A stretch of DNA of 64,000 nt from an uncultured Acidobacteriota bacterium (GTDB lineage: Bacteria; Acidobacteriota; Terriglobia; Acidiferrales; UBA7541). The notes below the pieces were generated by a model. It ran no database searches, was not told where the DNA came from, and saw only the letters and a list, made by a program, of their open reading frames with translations. Where the stretch lies: contig CAVRFZ010000025.1 in the NCBI GenBank assembly GCA_963720655.1, forward strand, positions 24,444 to 88,443, written 5' to 3'. The stretch's first letter is position 1, and each line of letters opens with the position of its first letter. Shown piece after piece: positions 8,884-18,519 of the stretch. The position numbers and the translations under genes were made by a program.

Positions 8884-10371
8884 GTGGGCGCGTCGCACCT
8901 AGAATCGCGGCCTAAATCGCACAGGCCAGGCTCTGATTCGAGAATTAGTGCGATTCTCGCGGAGCCGCTAATAGCGGAGACAGCCATCACACCCGGTCCG
9001 GGTAGGCCCAAAATAGCGATTGTGGACGACGATGCCGGGTTGCGCGCAAAGATTGCGTCTGCTCTGCGTTCAGATTTTGAAGTTCTCGAAGGCGAGGACT
9101 ACGACGCAGCGGTAAAGTTGCTGGAAGAGCGAGAGTTGGATGTGTTGCTGTTGGGGTTGCCCATCGCGTCCGGCGGCGTGCGGGAGTGCACTGAGTTGTT
9201 GTCAAGGCTGGACGGAAGCAACATCGACACGCTCGTGATCGTGCTGAGTTCCGATGAAAAGAAATCCACCGCGCTGAAGGTCATCGACGCGGGCTCTTAC
9301 GACTACTTCATCAAGCCAATCGACACGGACGTGCTCCGGCACCTGCTCGAGCGCGCAGTCGAGAAGCTGCACATCCAGCGCGAGAACCGGCTGCTGCGCG
9401 AGGAAATCAGCCGGAAGAACGCGCTCGGCGATCTGATCGGGACAACGGACTCGATGCGGCATGTGTTCGACTCAATCAAGCGGATGGCCCGGGCGACGAC
9501 CAACGTGATAATTCGCGGAGAGAGCGGCGTCGGAAAAGAGCTGGTGGCCCGCGCCCTCCACGAGCAGAGCCCGCGGCGAAACCGCGCTTTCATCAGCGTA
9601 AATTGCGCGGCGCTGCCCGAGGGGCTAATGGAGGCTGAGCTTTTTGGGTACGAGAAGGGGGCCTTTACAGGAGCAGTGGGAACGAAAGAAGGCCGCGTGG
9701 AGCTGGCCCATCAGGGAACACTGTTCCTCGATGAGATTGCAACGTTGACGCCACCATTACAGAGCAAGCTACTGCGGGTGCTGGAGGACCGGTCGCTGAC
9801 GAGGTTGGGCGGAAAGAAGCAGATCAAGGTGGATTTCCGGCTAATCAGCGCGACGAACGAGGACCTGGAAGAGATGGTGCGGGACGACCGGTTCCGCGAG
9901 GACCTGTATTACAGGATCCATGTGGTGCCGATTTTCGTGCCCGCGTTGCGCGAACGGGTAGAGGATATCCCTGTGCTGGCGGAGTATTTCGTCAGCGTCT
10001 ATTGCGCGGCCAATAGCTTTCCGGCGAAGCGTATCGCCGACGACGCCATGCAAGCGTTAAAACGCTACCCGTGGCCGGGCAACGTGCGCGAACTGGAGAA
10101 TGCGATTCAGAGGCTGGTGATCATGACGGACGGAGAAACGATTGAGCTCAAGGATCTGCCGATCGACATCATGCAGGTAGTCAGCCGGGACAGGGGACGG
10201 GTTAGGCTGTCGGGAAACGGGATCAATCTGGACAGAGAGATCGAGGCCTTCGAGCGACGGTGGGTGCAGGAAGCATTGGAACAATCGAAACAGGTAAAGT
10301 CAGAGGCGGCACGACTGCTGGGTGTCGATCGGAACCGATTGAACTACCTGTGCCGTAAGTACAGCCTGTGA
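8884..10371 (+). CDS. sigma-54-dependent transcriptional activator (receiver-like domain + AAA+ + Fis-type HTH)
   Basis: Walker A GESGVGKE, sigma-54 contact loop GAFTGA, C-terminal HTH AARLLGVDRNRLNYLCRKY. The receiver-like N-terminus has DVLLLGLP where the phospho-Asp is expected. The start codon is uncertain. Confidence 0.9.
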   Translation: MGASHLESRPKSHRPGSDSRISAILAEPLIAETAITPGPGRPKIAIVDDDAGLRAKIASALRSDFEVLEGEDYDAAVKLLEERELDVLLLGLPIASGGVRECTELLSRLDGSNIDTLVIVLSSDEKKSTALKVIDAGSYDYFIKPIDTDVLRHLLERAVEKLHIQRENRLLREEISRKNALGDLIGTTDSMRHVFDSIKRMARATTNVIIRGESGVGKELVARALHEQSPRRNRAFISVNCAALPEGLMEAELFGYEKGAFTGAVGTKEGRVELAHQGTLFLDEIATLTPPLQSKLLRVLEDRSLTRLGGKKQIKVDFRLISATNEDLEEMVRDDRFREDLYYRIHVVPIFVPALRERVEDIPVLAEYFVSVYCAANSFPAKRIADDAMQALKRYPWPGNVRELENAIQRLVIMTDGETIELKDLPIDIMQVVSRDRGRVRLSGNGINLDREIEAFERRWVQEALEQSKQVKSEAARLLGVDRNRLNYLCRKYSL

Positions 10372-10430
10372 TCCGGGTCTGCTTGCACAGGAGACTGGTA
10401 TCCGTATTTGCACATGGTGAAAAATTCATT

Positions 10431-10609: not shown

Positions 10610-10678
10610 ATGGCAAAGAAAACCTTGAAGAAGTCCAAGAAGCTCGAATCGACCAAGCCGTTGATCAGCCGCGGATAA
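10610..10678 (+). CDS. small Lys-rich peptide 1 (22 aa, MAKKTLKKSKKLESTKPLISRG)
   Basis: A GAGGGAG Shine-Dalgarno sits 9 nt upstream, a sigma-54 promoter lies upstream, and two hairpin terminators follow. It shares the KKLE..K.LI.R motif with two paralogs. The ORF is below the ORF-track size cutoff. Confidence 0.6.
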   Translation: MAKKTLKKSKKLESTKPLISRG

Positions 10679-10738
10679 TTTTTAGGTGCGCCCGAAATAG
10701 TGGCGCACTTTGCGGAGAAGGATTCTTGAAATGAGAAG

Positions 10739-10764
10739 AGGCCGCTCCTAGGAGCGGCCTTTTC
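10739..10764 (+). terminator. rho-independent terminator after peptide 1
   Basis: AGGCCGCTCC-TA-GGAGCGGCCT stem followed by TTTCC. It is preceded by a second hairpin, GTGCGCC-N9-GGCGCAC-TTT, at 10686-10711. Confidence 0.7.
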
Positions 10765-11003
10765 CACGTTAGGGCCAGAAAGTTAAAGGCCAAAGTCAGG
10801 GCAGAAAAATTCTGAAGATCGGCTTCTTGACCGTACCCTGGGCCGATTGGCTCAAGAGTCCGCAGGATCAGACCTGTAAGTGCCAGTATTTTAGTCATTT
10901 AGGAAACGGCACCTCTATGGATTAAGTTGGTTGCGCGTGATTCCGCGGCAGATTAGACTTTCTATCGTAGATGGAGCTCAACTTTTCATAACACGGTGCA
11001 AAA

Positions 11004-11099
11004 ATGAAGTCCAAACCGAAGCCAAAAACCCTTAAGAAGTCGACCAAACTCGAACCCTTGAAATCCCTCATCGTCCGCGCTCCTTGGGCCTCAAAGTAG
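11004..11099 (+). CDS. small Lys-rich peptide 2 (31 aa, MKSKPKPKTLKKSTKLEPLKSLIVRAPWASK)
   Basis: It is a paralog of peptide 1 (TLKKS.KLE..K.LI.R) with synonymous codon differences. An in-frame TAA lies 12 nt upstream of the ATG. The SD is weak (GGTG) and no clear promoter was found. Confidence 0.5.
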   Translation: MKSKPKPKTLKKSTKLEPLKSLIVRAPWASK

Positions 11100-11122
11100 C
11101 GACGGTTCCGTCAACCAGCCAG

Positions 11123-11917
11123 CTATTTACCCCTCTTACGAGCCAAGTACATCGTTCGCAGACCTGTAGATACTCGTCGGTTGCTGGGGGGCGCGGCGAG
11201 ATCGCTAAAATCCAGAACACGAACTAGTTCCAGCCCAGCCTGCCTGAGGTGGCGGATTATATCGGCATGGGGCCACTCGATTTCTTCCAGCAGGTCATCG
11301 TGGCGCTCCCAAAGGTCCTTTCGACCACGAATGAACCAAGTTACTCGATTCCAGCCTTTACCCCTCTTGCGGTCGAATCCGCCGTGCTCGACTGCAAAGA
11401 AATTCGGTCCTTCACCATAATTGGTTATGGACCAGTGCTGTTCGTAAAGGAGCCGCTGGTGCAAATCGAAGTAGAAATAGCCCCCGGGACGAAGCGCGCG
11501 GGCAACGGCCCGGGCAACTTGAGCCAATTGGGAGCGGTTGGGCAGGTGATTTATCACGCCCCATTGCGAGCAAACCAGATCGACTGGCTCGGGAAGGCTG
11601 AAGGTGCGCATGTCCGCCCGCCAGACACGTACGCGGAGCCCCGTCGCGCGCACCTTCCCACGCGTGACGCGGCACATTTGTGGGGATAAATCGACGGCAT
11701 AGACTTTCAGGCCCCGTCGCGCGAAATCAATGGCAGCCGTGCCGCTTCCGCAGCCAAGCTCACACACGCTTTTGACTCCGGGAAGAATCGAACGGAGCAA
11801 TTTTTCCCGGTTGCGAACCCAAGACTTTTCATAGAGAGGCCAGATCTCGTCGTAAACGGGGCCTAGTTCGGCGTAGGTGTTCGGTTTTGGCGCGATCTTT
11901 GTGGATGGGCGGGGCAA
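11123..11917 (-). CDS. class I SAM-dependent methyltransferase
   Basis: Motif I VCELGCGSGTAAIDFA, then acidic D in VYAVDLSP, and motif-IV-like LVCSQWGVINHL. Confidence 0.85.
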   Translation of the reverse strand: MPRPSTKIAPKPNTYAELGPVYDEIWPLYEKSWVRNREKLLRSILPGVKSVCELGCGSGTAAIDFARRGLKVYAVDLSPQMCRVTRGKVRATGLRVRVWRADMRTFSLPEPVDLVCSQWGVINHLPNRSQLAQVARAVARALRPGGYFYFDLHQRLLYEQHWSITNYGEGPNFFAVEHGGFDRKRGKGWNRVTWFIRGRKDLWERHDDLLEEIEWPHADIIRHLRQAGLELVRVLDFSDLAAPPSNRRVSTGLRTMYLARKRGK

Positions 11918-11981
11918 CAGGGCTCCTAAACGAGCGCCCTTTATATCAGGGGAGCGTGATTTTGCCCACCGCTAAAGGGGC

Positions 11982-12028
11982 GGCGTTGAAACGTTGGATT
12001 TTTCAACAACATGAGCAAAATTCAACGC
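11982..12028 (+). promoter_or_regulatory. candidate enhancer (UAS) half-sites GGCGTTGAA / TTCAACAAC / TTCAACGC
   Basis: Inverted GCGTTGAA (11983) and TTCAACGC (12021), plus an internal TTCAAC (12003), lie 85-125 nt upstream of the sigma-54 promoter at 12110. Confidence 0.35.
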
Positions 12029-12109
12029 TTACTGAGCTCAAATCAGAGGGTAGGCGTGCGCCGCCGTGCCTAAGTGGTTTGATTTTAAGCCAGGAGAGGG
12101 AATTGTGTT

Positions 12110-12125
12110 TGGCGCGCGAATTGCA
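12110..12125 (+). promoter_or_regulatory. sigma-54 (-24/-12) promoter
   Basis: TGGCGCGCGAATTGCA has GG and GC exactly 12 nt apart. It lies 53 nt upstream of the peptide-3 ATG, the same geometry as at peptide 1. Confidence 0.7.
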
Positions 12126-12177
12126 CTTGCTCTGAACAAGCCCGGGCAGGGACGAGACCAAGAAAAAGGGACGAATC

Positions 12178-12288
12178 ATGAATCCAACCGCGAAGCCAGT
12201 AAAGAAAAACAAGAAAGTCGAGCCGGCAAAGAAGCTCGAGCGTAAAACACCGCTGATGTCCGTGCGCAGTCTCACGGTGAAGTGGTAG
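12178..12288 (+). CDS. small Lys-rich peptide 3 (36 aa, MNPTAKPVKKNKKVEPAKKLERKTPLMSVRSLTVKW)
   Basis: AAGGGA SD about 8 nt upstream, sigma-54 promoter upstream, two hairpins downstream, and the shared KKLE..K(T)PL motif. Confidence 0.6.
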   Translation: MNPTAKPVKKNKKVEPAKKLERKTPLMSVRSLTVKW

Positions 12289-12429: not shown

Positions 12430-14577
12430 TCACCACCAAACCTGAGAACGCAACCAGTGCCAAGCGCTTCGACTCATCTGCCAGGCCAACGGCCTGCTCT
12501 TCGCTGTAATCTTGGCGACACCGGTCATCCCGGCGCTGAGTGAGCCGTCGGAGTTCGGAAATACCATCACGACGGCGAAGCGGTTAGTCAGTTCCTGCCC
12601 TAGTCGCGTTAGCTTTTGCGTGTCAGAGATGGGCGCATCGGTAGCGGCGGCGGGAAGAATCTGCTCCACATGGCCTGTGTAGGTGCGAAAAGCGTAGGGC
12701 AGAACTTTCACTCTTACAGGAGCACCGGCACGAATGTCGTTCAGATCGCGATCAGAGACGAAAATGCGCGCTTTCATCGTGCGAGCGTCAGAGAGGCGGC
12801 AGAATTCTTCGCCAGCGGCGAGAAACTGGCCGACTCGCTGGCGAATTTCGGAAGTTGTCACGATGCCGTCAAAGGGGGCGCGAATTTGTAGCGCGTCGAG
12901 ATTGGATGTGGCGACGGCGAGTTCTTTCTGAAGACGGATGCGTTCGCGCACGGACTGGGCAGACTTCCCGGATGCAGGCTGGTCCTGATTCTCTCGAAGG
13001 TTGCTGCTAGCCAAGGTGAGTTCGATGGTGGTCTTTCTGGCCTCCGCTTCAATCTCCGGGTTCTGCAGAACGGCGAGGAGTTGACCCGCCTTAACCTCTT
13101 GACCCTGGCGAACGAATACCTCTGAGATTGTTCCGGCAACTGAGGTGCGGAGATGCGCGGCCTTACCGGGCTCGAGGAGGAGTTCGGAGGAGACGCTGGT
13201 GGGGATAGGAGGCACGAATAAGAGCAAAGCGACTCCTAAGACGCCGAAAGTCTGAGCGCGCGTTAATCTCCAGGTCATGTAGGACCCCCCCTGTTTTCGA
13301 ATCCATGCGCGGGCGACAGGCACGGATGATTTGATCCCCTTTCGCGCGAAAAAATAAAGCACACCGGCAAACAAGAAATAGCCCCAGTCTCCGAACTTTG
13401 AGACGAGCACATTCTTCGCGAACAACAGGACCACGGCCAGCAGGGCGGCACTGTAGATGATTGCTGTGACGCCGAAAATGAAGAAGATTCGCCGGTGGCG
13501 GCGGCTGGAAGGAGGAAGATCAATATCCCGGCGAAAAATGTATTTCTGCGCCCAAACGCGCAGGAAAGCGAATGCGTCTTCGCGCAAGTTGTCGATATCG
13601 AGGAACTGCGAGAGGGCGTAATAACCATCGGCTTTGATGAGCGGATTCAGGTTTAAAACAGCGCCCTGTATGCCGCTGAGAAGCATCATCTTGTACGCCA
13701 AGTCACTAACGATAGTGCCGGGTGCGGTGAAGTGCCAGATCACGGCTGAAGTGCTGCAAAGAAGAAGCTCCACCCAGATGCCGGCGAAGATCACCCATTG
13801 GCGGCGTGAAGTGCGATCAAAGAGAAGGATATCTGTGGTGTCGGTATAAAAGGCGGGCGTCAGGTAGATCAGCAAAAACCCCATTTGGTGAACGTCGCCG
13901 CCGAAGTGCTTGCAGGTAAGCCCGTGGCCGAACTCGTGGACTGCGCCGAGCAGCAGAAGCAGGATCCAAAACGCCCACACATCGTAGGCGCTCTTTTCGG
14001 CGAAGGAATAAAGCGATGAAGTGTCGCGCTGCACCCGGCTCCAGTCGCCAGCTACAAAATAGGCCGCCGTGACAAACAGGAGGATGCAAAAAAACACGAA
14101 CTGAGTAGTGTAAATCCAGCTGAGATAAGGATCGAGCTTCGCGAGGGTTTTATTTGGGTCCCAGGCCTTGAAGCTGATGTATAGCATGCTGGACTGGTCG
14201 ACGCGGCCTTTGCGTTCGTCGCGGATGCGTTCAAGAACCGCGAGATTTTTTTCGCCCAGGGACCGTTCCCACATGGCGGGCTCAATTGAATCGAGAAATT
14301 CGAGAACTTCGGATTCCGCGATCGCAGAATCGGGGTCTTGTTCGGCGAGCGCCTCGGATATCTCGGCCGGTGTACGTGTTCCGTCGCACAGCAAAAGCAG
14401 CTGATATTCGAATTCACCGTAACGGTTGTAGGAATTGGTTTCGTAATTCTTGATGACGTAACTCTTTTCGCCATTCACGGTCTGTTCGCTGATGCGCAGA
14501 TCGGAGCGAAGCTTGGGGCGCCGCAATCCTTTGGAGAGGACGCTCGAGACCTGAATACTGGTGGGGCCAAAGCGCAT
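12430..14577 (-). CDS. triple-fusion protein: PqqD-like RRE domain + M50 site-2-protease membrane domain + HlyD-type periplasmic adaptor domain
   Basis: The N-terminus SYVIKNYETNSYNRYGEFEYQLLLLCDGTRTPAEISEALAE...VLEFLDSI is PqqD-like. HEFGHGLTCK (HExxH) and LNLNPLIKADGYY (NxxPxxxxDG) are M50 motifs within a multi-TM block. The C-terminus has a lipoyl-like hairpin (VAGTISEVFVRQGQEVKAGQLLAVL ... IRAPFDGIV). Confidence 0.8.
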   Translation of the reverse strand: MRFGPTSIQVSSVLSKGLRRPKLRSDLRISEQTVNGEKSYVIKNYETNSYNRYGEFEYQLLLLCDGTRTPAEISEALAEQDPDSAIAESEVLEFLDSIEPAMWERSLGEKNLAVLERIRDERKGRVDQSSMLYISFKAWDPNKTLAKLDPYLSWIYTTQFVFFCILLFVTAAYFVAGDWSRVQRDTSSLYSFAEKSAYDVWAFWILLLLLGAVHEFGHGLTCKHFGGDVHQMGFLLIYLTPAFYTDTTDILLFDRTSRRQWVIFAGIWVELLLCSTSAVIWHFTAPGTIVSDLAYKMMLLSGIQGAVLNLNPLIKADGYYALSQFLDIDNLREDAFAFLRVWAQKYIFRRDIDLPPSSRRHRRIFFIFGVTAIIYSAALLAVVLLFAKNVLVSKFGDWGYFLFAGVLYFFARKGIKSSVPVARAWIRKQGGSYMTWRLTRAQTFGVLGVALLLFVPPIPTSVSSELLLEPGKAAHLRTSVAGTISEVFVRQGQEVKAGQLLAVLQNPEIEAEARKTTIELTLASSNLRENQDQPASGKSAQSVRERIRLQKELAVATSNLDALQIRAPFDGIVTTSEIRQRVGQFLAAGEEFCRLSDARTMKARIFVSDRDLNDIRAGAPVRVKVLPYAFRTYTGHVEQILPAAATDAPISDTQKLTRLGQELTNRFAVVMVFPNSDGSLSAGMTGVAKITAKSRPLAWQMSRSAWHWLRSQVWW

Positions 14578-14589
14578 GGGTCGCGGTGC

Positions 14590-15528
14590 CTATGGTTTCG
14601 CTTTTGCAGTGCCCGGCCAAATCACATGTACAGCCATGCCGGGCCGCAAATCGGAAATTCCGGTTCCGACAAGCTGCGCGGTGACGTCGTAGCTGTCACT
14701 TGCGGGATCGACGGTGGGACTAACCTTCACCACGCGGGCTGAAAACGTGCGGCCGGAATTATCGACAAGCGAGAGATCGACGGGCGCGCCACGCTCGGGA
14801 CGCCTGGGGGAAGCTTCGGAAACCTGAAATTGGACCTGAAGGGGCGAAAGCTGGCTGATGCGAAAACACTTGTCATTCTTGGCCACCGTCTGACCTTCAC
14901 GAACATAGCGGCGCACGACGACACCGCTGAATGGGGCGCGCAGTCGGGTTTGGTCCAGTTGAATTTCGAGGCGATGAATTTCCGAATGGCTGCTTTCGAC
15001 CAGGGCTTGCCATCCATGCATATCGTATTCGGCGCCTTTTGCTTCAAACTCGGCGGCTTCCAGATCGGCTTCGCTTGAAAGCCCATATTCACGCAGCTGC
15101 TGTTGGCGTCTTAGAGCCGCGGCTTTGGCCTTGAGCTCGGCCTCTTTGAATTTCACGTTATTCTCGGCAACGGTGAGATCGTTGCGGGCCTTGTTGAGCT
15201 CCATCTGAAGGCTGCGGTCATCGAGCTGCCCTAGAATTTCACCGGCTTTGACGGCGCTGCCTTCGTCTTTCGCGAGGGAGGTGACGACACCGTCGCGCTC
15301 GGCAGAGAGATCCACTTGGTGCTCCACGGAGAGCACGCTGAGAACGTCGTTTGGCTCAGGAGGCTTGACGGTGGCGGTTGGTCCCGGCGGTTGTGACGGT
15401 CGCGAAGGCACGGCCGAAGACGGAGGTGGAGCGGCAGAAGTGGAATCCGGCGCGTGAGAAGAATCGCCACAGCCCGCCAGCGCGAGCGCCAAAGTTACGA
15501 TTGGAAGATACGTTGAACGTCTCATCAT
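14590..15528 (-). CDS. HlyD-family periplasmic adaptor lipoprotein
   Basis: Lipobox LALAGCGD, a Pro/Ser-rich linker, then barrel-sandwich and coiled-coil motifs (AERDGVVTSLAKDEGSAVKAGEILGQLD ... LRAPFSGVVV). Confidence 0.8.
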   Translation of the reverse strand: MMRRSTYLPIVTLALALAGCGDSSHAPDSTSAAPPPSSAVPSRPSQPPGPTATVKPPEPNDVLSVLSVEHQVDLSAERDGVVTSLAKDEGSAVKAGEILGQLDDRSLQMELNKARNDLTVAENNVKFKEAELKAKAAALRRQQQLREYGLSSEADLEAAEFEAKGAEYDMHGWQALVESSHSEIHRLEIQLDQTRLRAPFSGVVVRRYVREGQTVAKNDKCFRISQLSPLQVQFQVSEASPRRPERGAPVDLSLVDNSGRTFSARVVKVSPTVDPASDSYDVTAQLVGTGISDLRPGMAVHVIWPGTAKAKP

Positions 15529-15546: not shown

Positions 15547-17976
15547 TTACGGAAGCCAGCTCCAGACCTTCTGCCAAATCCAGCGAAATGGATCACGAAA
15601 TAGTGCGTAGCCTATCGGGTACCATCCGGTATGGAACCATTCGAGCGGGCCGCCTGCGGCGCGGATGCGAACGCGGCCAACCATTCCGTCGCGAGCGCGC
15701 CCGCCGGAATTCGAAAAGAGAGCGCGTACTAGAAAGTATTGGTCCCCAGCATCGGAATGAGTTTGAGCGCCGATACGATCGACGGTCCCGAAGAATGTTG
15801 CCGTCGGGAAGGCATTGAGCTTAAGGGCGACTTCCTTGCCAGGATGGACGAGGGCCAAATCCGTTTCAGGCACGCTCATTTCGGCGGCCATCCGTTCCTG
15901 GTCGACGATCTCGGCGAACGGATCTCCTGCCTTGACCATCACGCCAGTTTTCTCTTCAATTTTCGGCGTCACAACCACACCAGCAATCGGCGCACGAAGA
16001 TCCGCAGAGGCGACGCGCTGCTGTTCGAGTTTCACTTCGGCAGCATGAAGGTCGGCGCGCATTTTGGCTTGTCCTGCGGCCGATGGATCGTTACGAAATT
16101 CCGCTTCCGCAATTTCACGGCGAGCCTGCGCGAGAGCGGCTTCGGCTTGGGCAAGCTTGATGCGATCTTCGCTGTCGTCAAGCTGGGCAAGAGATTGGCC
16201 CGGCTGCACAGTTTCGCCTTCGCGAACGAAAACGTGCCGCACGACTCCGCCTTCGATCGAGCTAACAATGCGGCGCTCAGCGGGGACCACGGTAGCATCC
16301 GTACGCACGCGCACAGGCCATGGCACCAGAATAAGAATGGCGGCAACAATGGCGGCGCGCTCAGCATATAGGCGCCAGCGCTCCTTCGGCATCGCGGCAG
16401 CCAGGCGCTTTTTCTGTTCGGCAAGCGGCTGGAAAATATTCGCGAGCGGAACCTGCTGATAAAGCTGCGCATTGCGGATTGCAACAGTCGTCTGGTTGGC
16501 GAGAATCGAGACAGTCTCTTTGTTGGCGTCGGTGAGGAAGTCTGCGTCGCTGCTAAGAAGTATCATCGCGCCAAGAACGCCCTGATCGTCGCGCAGCGGC
16601 AAGGCATACGTGCCGTTGAGCTCGTAGGCTTCGAGGTATGAAACGAGCTGCGCGCGAGCATCTTCCGGATCGGCGTGCCAGCCATCGTCGTATTTATCGA
16701 CGGCGACGGGGCCTTCCTGCTGGGATACCCATTCCAGCCGGTCGCGCAGTTCGCTCATCTCGCGCGTTTTTGGAACCTCCGCTTCGCCCGAGACGGCGCC
16801 AAGAACGAATTTACGCCGATCGAAAAAGCCGATGACTAATTTGTCGAACGGAACTACGGAGGCGGCTTGCTGGGCGACAGTGGAAAGAACGTGATCGAGG
16901 TCCAGCGTGGATGTGATTTCCTGCGAAATTTTTAGAAGAGCGTCAAGGGCGTAGACCTTACGTTCGGATTCAAGAAGATTCGCATTGTGCAAGGCGACAG
17001 CAGCCTGCTCGCTGATGCTTTCGAGGAAAAAAAGATCTTCTTCGTTAAAGGGAGTGCCGTCTGCTTTGTTCACCAGCTCGACGATGCCGAGAACCTCGTT
17101 TTCCTTTCGTAGCGGCGCCGCCATCCACGACTCGATCTCGAATTCTCCGCCAGCCTTGATGCGCTCTTCGAGACCCGGTTCTTCCGATGGCGTTTCAAGG
17201 AGCTTCGGATTTCCCGCCTGGGCAATTTCACCGAGCAGCCCTTCGCTCGCGGAAACACTCGCACCTTGCTCCACCGTCGGATCCACTCCTGCGGTATTGG
17301 CCAGACGAAGTTCGTCTCCCGCCGCGAGCCACAGATTGCAGCCCTCAGCTCCGAGAATGTCTTTGATTTTGCCGGCGACGATGGGCAGCAGCTCTTCTAA
17401 CTCGAGTGTGGATGTGAAGGTGCGGCCAAGGTCGTAGAGAGCAGTGAGGCGTTCGAGAGTTGCGAGCTGGGCGTGGCGCTCGCCTTCTATAGCTTCGAGA
17501 TTCGTGAGAGCCTGGCCTGCAAGCCGCGCCGCTTCTTCGAGAAAATGCGCGTCTTGCTCTGTAAAGTTCCCGGCTCTCTTGTTCAGGACCTCGACCACGC
17601 CTTCGGGCCCTTCGACGCCGGGAAGGGAGGCAAACATTGCAGATTTGACGCGGACCCGGCTCGTCTCCTCCAGATGCTCGAGATCATCAAGCGACAGATC
17701 CTGCGCGCTAAGGCGGCTGGTGCTTGCCGACTCAAACACGATGGCGAGAGGACCTTCAGTGACCGGTTCGCTGGAGGGCACAATCCGCTCGCCGGTTTCG
17801 GTCCAGCGCGTACGGCATGCAAGCCCTTCCGATTCAGAATCGTGAATCCACACGAATACGGCGCGCGCTCCGAGCGTGGTGCCCACGCGAGCGGCAAACG
17901 TCTTCAAAAGCGTGTCCTGATCGCGACACGCTAGAGACACGCTCGCGAGTTCGAAGAGCGCCGAAGATGTTTCCAT
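15547..17976 (-). CDS. GAF-domain (about 3 copies) - TM - HlyD-type adaptor fusion protein
   Basis: The start is set at METSSALFEL with a GGGAGA SD. About 520 cytoplasmic residues carry repeated GAF-like units. A single TM (AAIVAAILILVPWPV) follows, then HlyD motifs (IEGGVVRHVFVREGETVQPGQSLAQLD ... LRAPIAGVVV). Confidence 0.8.
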   Translation of the reverse strand: METSSALFELASVSLACRDQDTLLKTFAARVGTTLGARAVFVWIHDSESEGLACRTRWTETGERIVPSSEPVTEGPLAIVFESASTSRLSAQDLSLDDLEHLEETSRVRVKSAMFASLPGVEGPEGVVEVLNKRAGNFTEQDAHFLEEAARLAGQALTNLEAIEGERHAQLATLERLTALYDLGRTFTSTLELEELLPIVAGKIKDILGAEGCNLWLAAGDELRLANTAGVDPTVEQGASVSASEGLLGEIAQAGNPKLLETPSEEPGLEERIKAGGEFEIESWMAAPLRKENEVLGIVELVNKADGTPFNEEDLFFLESISEQAAVALHNANLLESERKVYALDALLKISQEITSTLDLDHVLSTVAQQAASVVPFDKLVIGFFDRRKFVLGAVSGEAEVPKTREMSELRDRLEWVSQQEGPVAVDKYDDGWHADPEDARAQLVSYLEAYELNGTYALPLRDDQGVLGAMILLSSDADFLTDANKETVSILANQTTVAIRNAQLYQQVPLANIFQPLAEQKKRLAAAMPKERWRLYAERAAIVAAILILVPWPVRVRTDATVVPAERRIVSSIEGGVVRHVFVREGETVQPGQSLAQLDDSEDRIKLAQAEAALAQARREIAEAEFRNDPSAAGQAKMRADLHAAEVKLEQQRVASADLRAPIAGVVVTPKIEEKTGVMVKAGDPFAEIVDQERMAAEMSVPETDLALVHPGKEVALKLNAFPTATFFGTVDRIGAQTHSDAGDQYFLVRALFSNSGGRARDGMVGRVRIRAAGGPLEWFHTGWYPIGYALFRDPFRWIWQKVWSWLP

Positions 17977-18183
17977 TGCTCTCCCTGGAGGGGCGTTCTC
18001 ACACCCGCCCCCGCGCCGAGCCCGGAGACCGGGGGAAAGAGAACGCGCGGAGCCTAACAAAAGGGGCTGTAGCGCGTCAAGGAACTGTCCCCTAATGGCC
18101 CCGATAAACAGGACATACGAGAGTGCAAACCCTTGATTGCGGAGCGCAATTCAGTTAGCTTTGCAACTCGCTGTGAGGTACCT

Positions 18184-18519
18184 GTGAATATTGGTATTCG
18201 CAAAGCCGGACAAGCCACGATCCTGGATCTTGAGGGCCCCCTCAAACTTGGTGAGGCGGAAGAGGCATTCCGCAGTCAGATTCAGCAACTGATGGATGCG
18301 GGATCCACTCGCGTTGCCGTGAACCTGGCGGGTGTAACCGAGCTTGATAGCTCGGGAATTGGCGCTCTCGTCCGTTCTTTTACGATGTTGAAGCGGGCGG
18401 GCGGAAAATGCACGTTTTTCGCGCCGAGTAAGCGCGTGATGATGCTGCTGAAAATGGTGCGCCTGGATTCGATATTGGACCTTTCGGAAGACGAAGCCAC
18501 AGCGCTAACGCGCATTTAG
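18184..18519 (+). CDS. STAS-domain protein (anti-sigma-factor-antagonist type)
   Basis: GTG start after GAGG. ILDLEGPL...VAVNLAGVTELDSSGIGALV is the SpoIIAA/RsbV pattern with the conserved Ser. Confidence 0.8.
   Translation: MNIGIRKAGQATILDLEGPLKLGEAEEAFRSQIQQLMDAGSTRVAVNLAGVTELDSSGIGALVRSFTMLKRAGGKCTFFAPSKRVMMLLKMVRLDSILDLSEDEATALTRI

Follow-up and report, generated by a model that had tools for sequence, protein, structure and literature searches.

Lysine-rich micro-proteins encoded beside an RRE-M50-adaptor gene cluster in Acidobacteriota: candidate leader-plus-tail precursors

Introduction

Among described systems, the closest to the one considered here are those in which a membrane protease matures a short peptide. 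MpaP, the leader peptidase of daptides, is an RRE-dependent intramembrane enzyme with an N-terminal RRE (recognition element of RiPPs, peptides that are made by ribosomes and modified after translation) fused to a site-2 (M50) protease, and its substrates are short precursors with an N-terminal ELExMEAP motif, cut right after P(-1) (Ren et al., bioRxiv 10.1101/2023.03.08.531785). In the case of epipeptides, EpeP, an M50 protease, is believed to combine cleavage and export of EpeX (review PMC10885120). Our subject is three lysine-rich micro-open reading frames (micro-ORFs), P1, P2 and P3, in a 64,000-nucleotide stretch of DNA, ‘the window’ in what follows, from an uncultured Acidobacteriota bacterium (Terriglobia; Acidiferrales; UBA7541; contig CAVRFZ010000025.1 of assembly GCA_963720655.1, positions 24,444 to 88,443 of the forward strand). 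They are real protein-coding genes under purifying selection as peptides, and they and their relatives have a fixed place beside the gene for a membrane protein, an RRE-M50-HlyD fusion, whose best characterised relative is MpaP. Whether their conserved N-terminal part serves as a leader, and their variable C-terminal part as the product, is the issue around which the evidence is arranged here.

Two other kinds of small peptide invite comparison. Double-glycine bacteriocins and class II microcins, e.g., colicin V with CvaABC, are handled by an ATP-binding cassette (ABC) transporter with a C39 peptidase, together with an HlyD-type adaptor and TolC. Eep, the protease that matures Gram-positive pheromones such as those of the cAD1 type and SHP, is without RRE or adaptor domain, and the precursors of its pheromones are signal peptides or are short and hydrophobic. 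How does the acidobacterial locus compare?

A family of micro-proteins with a fixed place

The first-pass annotation of the window had put forward three unannotated paralogous micro-ORFs with a common motif, and all three are where it placed them, on the + strand and with the translations that it gave (Table 1). The synonymous codons it quoted, ttg and ctt for Leu, tcc and tcg for Ser, aag and aaa for Lys, and gaa and gag for Glu, are likewise there in the sequence. Two details need amending. The motif, KKLE-x2-K-x-L-[IM], describes P1 and P2 but not P3, in which the basic residue comes one position earlier (KKLE-R-K-TP-L-M), and ‘unannotated’ is right for the exact sequences of P1 and P2 but not for that of P3, which public protein collections list as a ‘hypothetical protein’. 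A 21-residue orthologue of P1 is also on record in the representative protein library. When the whole window was scanned in all six frames, tight forms of the motif turned up in P1 and P3 only, P2 being a diverged copy.

Are the three a peculiarity of one genome? With the M50-HlyD protein as query, 80 loci were fetched from species-representative genomes (62–98% identity), and the family was sought in them by a regular-expression scan and then with a hidden Markov model (HMM) built from 97 seeds. The nearest relative is a contig of a metagenome-assembled genome (MAG) with 98% protein identity, and the relatives are labelled Candidatus Acidiferrales. The HMM identifies 169 micro-ORFs, 20–45 codons in length, in 78 of the 80 loci, mostly two or three per locus, and of the 167 matches in those loci 166 are on the expected strand in a zone of ~1.6 kb between the stop codon of the M50-HlyD gene and that of an activator gene, though this zone makes up 3.5% of the sequence searched. 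A homologue search of this type had been proposed as a check, and micro-ORFs beside homologues of the flanking genes are what it brought out. The five-part module of GAF-HlyD, HlyD, RRE-M50-HlyD, peptides and activator is present in 75–80 of the 80 loci; the genes that flank it in the window are in only 4–48 of them.

Four types of leader recur. Type A, to which P1 belongs, is MAKKTLKK[AS]KK[LIM]E[ASP]TKPL followed by a tail; P1 itself has a family-HMM score of 39.6, the upstream ribosome-binding site (RBS) GAGGGAG, and an orthologue in L001 as well as in other loci. Type B, represented by P3, is M.PTAKPVKK.KK....KKLE[RK]K.PL followed by a tail, and its leader, that of P3 included, has an internal duplication of 6–7 residues relative to type A. 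Type C, represented by P2, is MK.KKT.K.LKKPTK[LI]EPTKPL.R[AST]PW.., usually has no sigma-54 box of its own and comes directly after the type A terminator. P2 conforms in its placement 3′ of the P1 terminator, as do its orthologues in other genomes, e.g., MKQKKTTKQLKKPTKIEPTKPLVRAPWASK in L003 and MNAKQKQKPKTLKKSTRLDAVKSLIIHAPWMPK in P0149, the latter sharing even the deviant KSLI motif of P2. Type D, MAKAKPVKKGKKLG[AS]VKPL followed by a tail, has no member in the window.

What distinguishes a conserved peptide from a conserved RNA or piece of regulatory DNA? Codon-position bias of conservation had been named beforehand as the feature to decide this, and the outcome was peptide. Across 46 different leader sequences of type A, entropy is 0.40 at the first codon position, 0.06 at the second and 0.78 at the third, which bears out the earlier proposal of selection on the protein. 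Residues A2, T15, P17 and L18 are invariant in type A leaders while their codons vary synonymously only, the third positions doing so freely, and conservation of the type A 5′ untranslated region (5′UTR) is limited to the GGGAG of the RBS. Third-position excess is seen also in the P2-like, P3-like and type D subfamilies, with values of 0.63, 0.47 and 1.22 for type C (12 distinct sequences, whose R[AST]PW tail is conserved) and of 0.69, 0.67 and 1.19 for the P3-like type B.

Public resources hold little of this. Neither NCBIfam nor Pfam has a family for the peptides, and a profile search of 1.84 billion representative proteins with the three window peptides gave 13 matches only, all from close relatives and several with mis-called long N-termini; no giant protein with such a leader is among the 13, and so no bridge to giant cargo (considered below) was found there. 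Public gene calls for P3-like peptides (P0137–P0148) often begin at an upstream GTG, TTG or ATG, giving ‘proteins’ of 54–73 residues. Conservation of the ATG, of the RBS and of the spacing to the sigma-54 box indicates a true P3-like product of 35–39 residues.

Some individual members deserve separate mention. The type B copy at 13190 in L006, MNPTAKPVKKNKKLITGKKLEREECR, is truncated, probably by a frameshift. L013 has an additional type A gene (5694, + strand) on the far side of the transporter operon, with a sigma-54 box of its own; it is the sole family member found outside the usual zone. Module-bearing contigs L004, L061, L072, L073 and L075 carry the labels Dormiibacterota, Cybelea, Planctomycetaceae, Binatus and Udaeobacter. 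They are probably mis-binned MAG contigs; L072 encodes the two peptides of the Acidobacteriota contig L071, and does so at identical locus coordinates.

Leader, tail and the protease next door

A conserved N-terminal part with a variable C-terminal part was the layout seen in the three window peptides, and the family as a whole has it: pairwise identity is 87% for leaders and 24% for tails, the latter to be compared with 21% for shuffled tails. Leaders are 36% Lys and 0.6% Arg. Tails are of 1–17 residues (median 8), have no Cys and almost no acidic residues, and are rich in R, K, V, P, G and T, with Trp in 39 of 165; their last residues are dominated by K, R, N, P and G, those of P1, P2 and P3 being G, K and W. 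Among close relatives certain tails are nevertheless kept, as with IRWGGN, R[AST]PW, and the P3 tail MSVRSLTVKW, which recurs in L002, L004, L008, L011 and L012. Some type D tails have repeated units ending [KR]PL, with two or three such repeats in L027 (12386), L065 (4202), L077 (13232 and 12736), L050 (7352) and L026 (2609), an example being VKPLMNVKPLMNVKPLIRVS; to judge from their sequences, these look like multi-core precursors or repeated cleavage sites.

The precursor reading of this layout gains support, independent of the peptides themselves, from their constant neighbour, which is predicted from sequence and modelling to have an RRE-fold domain, an M50 intramembrane protease with HExxH, and a periplasmic adaptor domain. 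Its parts are a PqqD-like RRE (about residues 20–105), the M50 domain with HEFGH (214–218) and an HlyD/MacA-like periplasmic adaptor (about 460–715). Against the NCBIfam model daptide_HExxH (NF041824), the MpaP family of RRE-fused site-2 proteases, it scores 3.9e-54 and 184 bits, where the cut-off is 300, over profile positions 3–371 of 379, and on this profile evidence it is a relative of the MpaP family and not an equivalog. It matches NCBIfam YydH/LiaK (NF058609) at 1e-13 (51.5 bits, with a cut-off of 225) and NCBIfam RND_mfp at 6e-26, and the Pfam domains found are Peptidase_M50, HlyD_3 and PqqD. The PqqD HMM matches are weak, at 9e-4 for the window fusion and 1e-5 for a Methylosinus homologue. 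Modelled alone, however, the N-terminal domain (predicted local distance difference, pLDDT, 82; predicted template-modelling score, pTM, 0.70) has the RRE fold, with strands 28–34, 37–44 and 49–54 and helices 55–62, 70–80 and 88–97, and its top Foldseek matches are leader-peptide-bound TbiB1, PqqD, lasso B1, CteB and TglHI (E 0.008–0.3, probability 0.84–1.0). The fold of the C-terminal domain matches MacA and MexA adaptors. The full-length model is poor (pLDDT 57), its fold search giving adaptor matches only, and a PDB sequence search found no solved relative of the RRE-M50 part.

Read by analogy in the MpaP register, the peptide motif K-L(-7)-E(-6)-x-T-K-P-L(-1) ends exactly where conservation of the micro-ORFs stops. 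We lean, with due reserve, towards the peptides being sigma-54-induced precursors with a leader and a tail. The adjacent activator would switch the peptide genes on from an upstream activating sequence (UAS), the cytoplasmic RRE domain of the M50 fusion would bind the Lys-rich leader (KK[LIM]E-x-TKPL or variants), and the intramembrane metalloprotease would cut at or near the leader/tail junction that follows KPL. Three adaptors, with an outer-membrane channel encoded elsewhere and so unlinked, would then export the short, cationic, species-variable tail, or perhaps the whole peptide. As no modification enzyme is conserved in the module, the product would probably be an unmodified linear peptide.

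The other two adaptor genes form, with that for the fusion, a three-gene operon convergent with the micro-ORFs. The short adaptor, present in 79 of the 80 loci, matches the 293-residue adaptor of an E. coli plasmid system, and GAF-HlyD, present in 76, has a BLASTP match of 2e-18 to GAF-HlyD of an Ensifer giant-protein cluster; both of these systems are returned to below.

Table 1. Features of the window discussed in the text, with positions counted from its first nucleotide
Feature	Position	Strand	Details
Sigma-54-dependent activator	8884-10371	+	Receiver-like domain, AAA+ with GAFTGA, Fis-type helix-turn-helix; start codon uncertain
Likely UAS of P1	10418-10446		TGA-N5-TCA palindrome in two copies: TGAAAAATTCA at 10418, GTTGAGTAAATCAAC around 10436
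Sigma-54 -24/-12 promoter of P1	10544-10559	+	TGGCAACTTGATTGCA, 66 nt before ATG
5′UTR hairpin of P1	10574-10586	+	GCCCCAGAGGGGC, at predicted transcript 5′ end; also in RNA fold
P1	10610-10678	+	Type A; leader MAKKTLKKSKKLESTKPL, tail ISRG
Intrinsic-terminator hairpin and T-run after P1	10739-10766	+	
P2	11004-11099	+	Type C; leader MKSKPKPKTLKKSTKLEPLKSL, tail IVRAPWASK
Class I S-adenosylmethionine (SAM) methyltransferase	11123-11917	-	Between P2 and P3
Degenerate UAS region of P3	11983-12028		GTTGGATTTTTCAAC (11993-12007) flanked by inverted repeat GCGTTGAA...TTCAACGC
Sigma-54 -24/-12 promoter of P3	12110-12125	+	TGGCGCGCGAATTGCA, 68 nt before ATG
P3	12178-12288	+	Type B; leader MNPTAKPVKKNKKVEPAKKLERKTPL, tail MSVRSLTVKW
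Intrinsic-terminator hairpin and T-run after P3	12370-12405	+	
RRE-M50-HlyD fusion	12430-14577	-	715 residues; convergent with P3; in 80/80 loci (loci selected for it)
Short periplasmic adaptor	14590-15528	-	HlyD/RND membrane-fusion type, lipoprotein-like N-terminus; TIGR01730 6.6e-45
GAF-HlyD	15547-18060	-	Three cytoplasmic GAF domains, transmembrane segment, HlyD-type adaptor; Pfam GAF 1e-33 (3 stretches), HlyD_D23 5e-22
STAS-domain ORF	18133-18519	+	Anti-sigma-factor-antagonist-like; divergent from the GAF-HlyD operon

Promoters and transcription units

P1 and P3 have the marks of sigma-54-dependent genes, i.e., a -24/-12 promoter at a fixed distance and an adjacent activator with UAS; P2 has no sigma-54 box and its RBS is weak. 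P1 and P3 each have a purine-rich RBS as well, and downstream a GC-rich hairpin with a T-run. Their promoters are two of only 3 exact matches to TGGC-N7-TTGCW in the 64 kb. Across the family the strict box is within 130 nt upstream of 105 of the 176 members from the first pass of the family search, against an expectation of 0.0065 per 130 nt, and is mostly 61–71 nt before the ATG; the relaxed form GG-N8-TTGCA, 59–77 nt before the ATG, is present in most members (about 135 of 169). A loose pattern allowing 2 mismatches gave 395 matches where 347 were expected and is uninformative.

Further upstream are palindromes. The two of P1 are 127 and 109 nt upstream of the -24 GG, and the degenerate one of P3, at 118 nt, is inside the family UAS window. 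Of 122 family promoters, 108 have TGA-N5-TCA, in fuller form GTTGA-N5-TCAAC, at 105–131 nt upstream of the -24 element, where the expectation is 0.02, and it is often double with sites 18–19 nt apart. On such sequence evidence the palindromes are likely to be activator binding sites, and since this is a normal position for the site of an enhancer-binding protein and the activator is adjacent, that activator is the obvious candidate binder. Its Pfam matches are Sigma54_activat (PF00158, 2e-69), Response_reg (1.6e-13) and HTH_8 (5e-6), and it is directly upstream of the micro-ORFs in 75 of the 80 related loci. At the other end of the promoter region, 77 of 130 family promoters have a GCCC-N4/5-GGGC hairpin, which in 41 of them follows the -12 element by exactly 14 nt; the hairpin may have an mRNA-stabilising or regulatory role. 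A terminator-like hairpin is within 120 nt downstream of 144 of the 169 family members.

Relatives of the membrane complex beside giant genes

Is the three-adaptor apparatus peculiar to Acidobacteriota? A protein search of plasmid records revealed distant homologues of RRE-M50-HlyD in many Proteobacteria, at 23–27% identity and with the same architecture of ~710 residues. In all eight of the proteobacterial plasmid loci inspected (L081, L082 and L085–L090), the M50 gene is accompanied by two further adaptor genes and comes directly after a giant gene, with TolC in six of them. The giant gene is Ig-like in E. coli IncF (L081, NZ_CP104683.1; 13.4 kb, 4,457 residues) and in Kosakonia, LamG in Methylosinus (L082; 26.5 kb), DUF4347 in Burkholderia and in Niveispirillum, Ca-binding in Alisedimentitalea (24 kb), named ‘LEPR-XLL domain-containing protein’ by the annotation pipeline PGAP in Thalassospira (12 kb), and of >5,800 residues in Ensifer. 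Each of the three window genes has one counterpart among the E. coli adaptors, which likewise number three. Some of the clusters also have a SecA-like ATPase, DUF3467 or SapC. A gene of Methylosinus pMSC49a annotated ‘prepilin peptidase’ (GYH34_RS19190; L082 9903–11819) encodes a SecA-like ATPase (NCBIfam SecA, 7e-179), and the Ensifer and Alisedimentitalea clusters have similar SecA paralogues.

The likeness between the two settings is considerable in the apparatus, whose three membrane proteins correspond one to one with the same domain architecture, including that of GAF-HlyD in Ensifer, and in the candidate substrate gene adjoining it. The five cargo N-termini that are readable have a basic stretch and then [LI]E[PS]R.[LV][LFY][DSN][AG], i.e., a basic stretch followed by L-E-(P/S/A)-basic, and the Methylosinus cargo matches the LEPR-XLL domain model of NCBIfam (NF012209) at 1.7e-7; micro-ORF leaders are superficially alike in having a basic stretch and then [LIM]E[PSA]TKPL. 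The differences are also plain. The cargo is of 2,300 to over 8,000 residues compared with 20–45 here, a single operon carries cargo and apparatus in the same orientation, along with TolC and often a SecA-like ATPase, DUF3467 or SapC, and the clusters have no sigma-54 activator; in the acidobacterial loci no SecA-like, DUF3467 or SapC homologue occurs within 10 kb. None of 100 micro-ORFs matches NF012209 even at E<=10, and in the terms by which NCBIfam defines such proteins the peptides neither match the model nor qualify, at their length, as very large repetitive secreted proteins; they do have the apparatus context, which is no part of that definition.

These LEPR-XLL/DUF4347/Ig-like clusters are annotated, and as far as could be found have not been described as a system. 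Literature searches on M50, HlyD and Acidobacteria, on LEPR-XLL, on DUF4347, on PqqD with M50 and TolC, and on RRE with site-2 protease in Acidobacteriota brought up no description of an M50-adaptor system. A 2026 preprint reports that giant LEPRxLL proteins lack known transport signals. From their gene content, the clusters seem to be dedicated to exporting giant surface proteins, a system so far undescribed that is found on clinical E. coli IncF plasmids among others, and the shared apparatus suggests a general, undescribed export route. A bolder proposal, which we offer tentatively and would sooner doubt than assume, is that RRE-M50-adaptor, GAF-adaptor and short adaptor form the core of an undescribed envelope-spanning export pathway whose substrates would be recognised by the RRE through a basic ‘L-E-(P/S/A)’ leader and clipped by the metalloprotease. 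Those substrates would be giant LEPR-XLL/DUF4347/Ig-like adhesins in Proteobacteria and, in Acidobacteria of the Acidiferrales type, mini-peptides with a hypervariable tail of 1–17 residues, possibly a species-specific signal.

Weighing the explanations

Several observations weigh against the peptides being leader-plus-tail precursors for the neighbouring complex. Two of the 80 loci have apparatus and activator with no micro-ORF between them, and the association of peptide with protease is one of synteny within a single order-level clade, the M50-HlyD identities being 62–98%. No sigma-54 box was found before the transporter operon, which makes up a transcription unit separate from, and convergent with, the peptide genes. 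Within 10 kb, the acidobacterial loci encode no ATPase, no ABC transporter and no TolC. In a functional core, tails of 1–3 residues and tail evolution that is near neutral would be surprising. Nor do tails of the same genome resemble one another significantly more than they do those of other genomes (p=0.08), so that concerted evolution of tails within a genome has no significant support. Lastly, the likeness of leaders to cargo N-termini is without statistical support, hhalign profile–profile comparison of the leader with the five cargo N-termini aligning only ‘LE’ at a probability of 0.06%; the proteobacterial clusters are accordingly drawn on here for their adjacent, N-terminally tagged substrate of the apparatus, and not for any membership of the peptides in LEPR-XLL.

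Might the part that is conserved simply be the part that matters? In that case the Lys-rich N-terminal 18–26 residues would themselves be the functional product, a small cationic intracellular protein under sigma-54 control, e.g., a binder of nucleic acid, ribosome or membrane, with an unconstrained tail, and the transporter would be linked to it only by shared history or regulation. The pattern of conserved leader and shuffled-like tail fits this equally well, as do the shortest tails and the separateness of the transcription units, and the strong preference of leaders for Lys over Arg suggests a specific interaction of the leader. Even so, we rate it as unlikely, since it leaves unexplained why all copies but one of 167 are beside the RRE-protease, why a genome retains several paralogues that differ in their tails, why the three tails named above are conserved among relatives, and why conservation stops sharply at KPL, in the cutting register of MpaP.

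The peptides might instead be regulators. They could occupy the RRE-M50-adaptor complex as plugs or as short-lived substrates, or could be ligands for the activator or for the GAF domains, and their cleavage would then tune the export of cargo encoded elsewhere or feed back on sigma-54 expression. Another input is called for, as in the pseudo-receiver of the activator (around ELDVLLLGLPIASGG) the residue aligned to the phospho-acceptor Asp of NtrC1 (Asp54-equivalent) is Gly (45) or Ala (30) in all 75 orthologues, and no histidine kinase gene adjoins that for the activator; with a receiver that is non-phosphorylatable and no adjacent kinase, the activator must be controlled otherwise. The largest adaptor has three cytoplasmic GAF sensor domains, the homologous proteobacterial apparatus has a large cargo, and very short tails are compatible with the leader alone mattering. 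However, a candidate cargo gene, giant or otherwise, is lacking both from the 64 kb window and, to a distance of 10 kb, from the 80 loci, a simple regulator would not be expected to occur as multiple diverging paralogues in one genome, and we know of no precedent for peptides acting in this way. This explanation strikes us as rather improbable.

The methyltransferase gene between P2 and P3 naturally raises the issue of a modified RiPP of a known class, either daptide-like with methylated C-terminus, as the first-pass annotation hinted in mentioning methylated C-terminal fragments, or an epipeptide, the methyltransferase in either case being a tailoring enzyme. The best NCBIfam matches do point that way, being to a daptide-type RiPP methyltransferase (2.5e-16) and, for the fusion protease, to the daptide intramembrane metalloprotease, but both are far below curated cut-offs (59.9 bits against 175 in the case of the methyltransferase). 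Moreover, the methyltransferase gene is in only 10 of the 80 loci and in either orientation, so it is not a core component, and from its distribution it is probably an unrelated insertion; with no other modification enzyme conserved, the hint of methylation finds no support.

Comparison with daptides in full is instructive. The leader peptidase aligns over RRE and M50, and the motif register agrees with KLExTKPL followed by the tail. The protease here, though, has a periplasmic adaptor domain added at its C-terminus and acts together with two further adaptors, and no equivalents of MpaB (DUF-RRE), MpaC (oxidative decarboxylase), MpaD (aminotransferase) or MpaM (methyltransferase) are conserved in the module. 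Daptide precursors end in an invariant Thr, converted to dimethyl-propanediamine, whereas Thr is last in 4 of 165 tails here, and daptide leaders are acidic while those here are poly-Lys, in a Gram-negative acidobacterium with sigma-54-dependent genes. With epipeptides (YydF/EpeX, with YydH/EpeP) the likeness is in a small peptide being matured by a membrane M50 protease, together with the weak YydH/LiaK match; the conserved module here has no radical-SAM epimerase and no ABC transporter, and the epipeptide system is Gram-positive and without adaptor domains. Given in addition the lack of Cys in tails, a modified RiPP of either class is very improbable.

The other peptides of the Introduction resemble the proposed system in some respects. 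Double-glycine systems share with what is proposed here an unmodified small peptide with a leader cut during export via an adaptor/TolC-type conduit, and several paralogues per locus, but the acidobacterial module lacks a Gly-Gly motif (the leader ends [KT][PTS]L), a C39 domain and an ABC ATPase; an RRE would recognise the leader and a metalloprotease would cut it. The pheromones matured by Eep resemble the products proposed here in being very short, linear and unmodified, released via a site-2-type protease, with mature parts that are species-specific and variable; no receptor of the Rgg or PrgX type is evident here. By their defining features the peptide system is not one of daptides, epipeptides, LEPR-XLL proteins or double-glycine peptides.

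That the ORFs are chance occurrences inside sigma-54-dependent small RNAs or regulatory DNA is scarcely credible, for although the transcripts are short with strong 5′ and 3′ hairpins and their predicted folding has z-scores of -3.4 and -2.5, this folding signal stems from the terminators and the short 5′ hairpin, no Rfam match was found, frame, ATG and RBS are kept in about 170 copies despite 5′UTRs that are otherwise unconserved, and the codon-position analysis effectively refutes it. The possibility of their being remnants of a lost giant cargo gene was also considered, and is ruled out by their own promoters and terminators, multiple copies and purifying selection.

Significance

To a dominant group of soil and peat bacteria, the present analysis adds a widespread family of micro-proteins that are mostly below gene-calling thresholds, and with promoter, activator site, RBS and terminator all defined, the family lends itself directly to testing. 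As a possible route to RiPP-like peptides that needs no tailoring enzymes, it would escape both mining that starts from such enzymes and gene calling with a size filter. No solved or studied example exists of an RRE-protease with a periplasmic adaptor fused to it, and a natural substrate of 22 residues would be an ideal handle for dissecting the machinery biochemically. The homologous apparatus beside giant LEPR-XLL-type proteins, some of which are among the largest bacterial proteins, provides a concrete hypothesis for how they are recognised and exported. If the tails are signals, there would be peptide-based communication in Acidobacteria.

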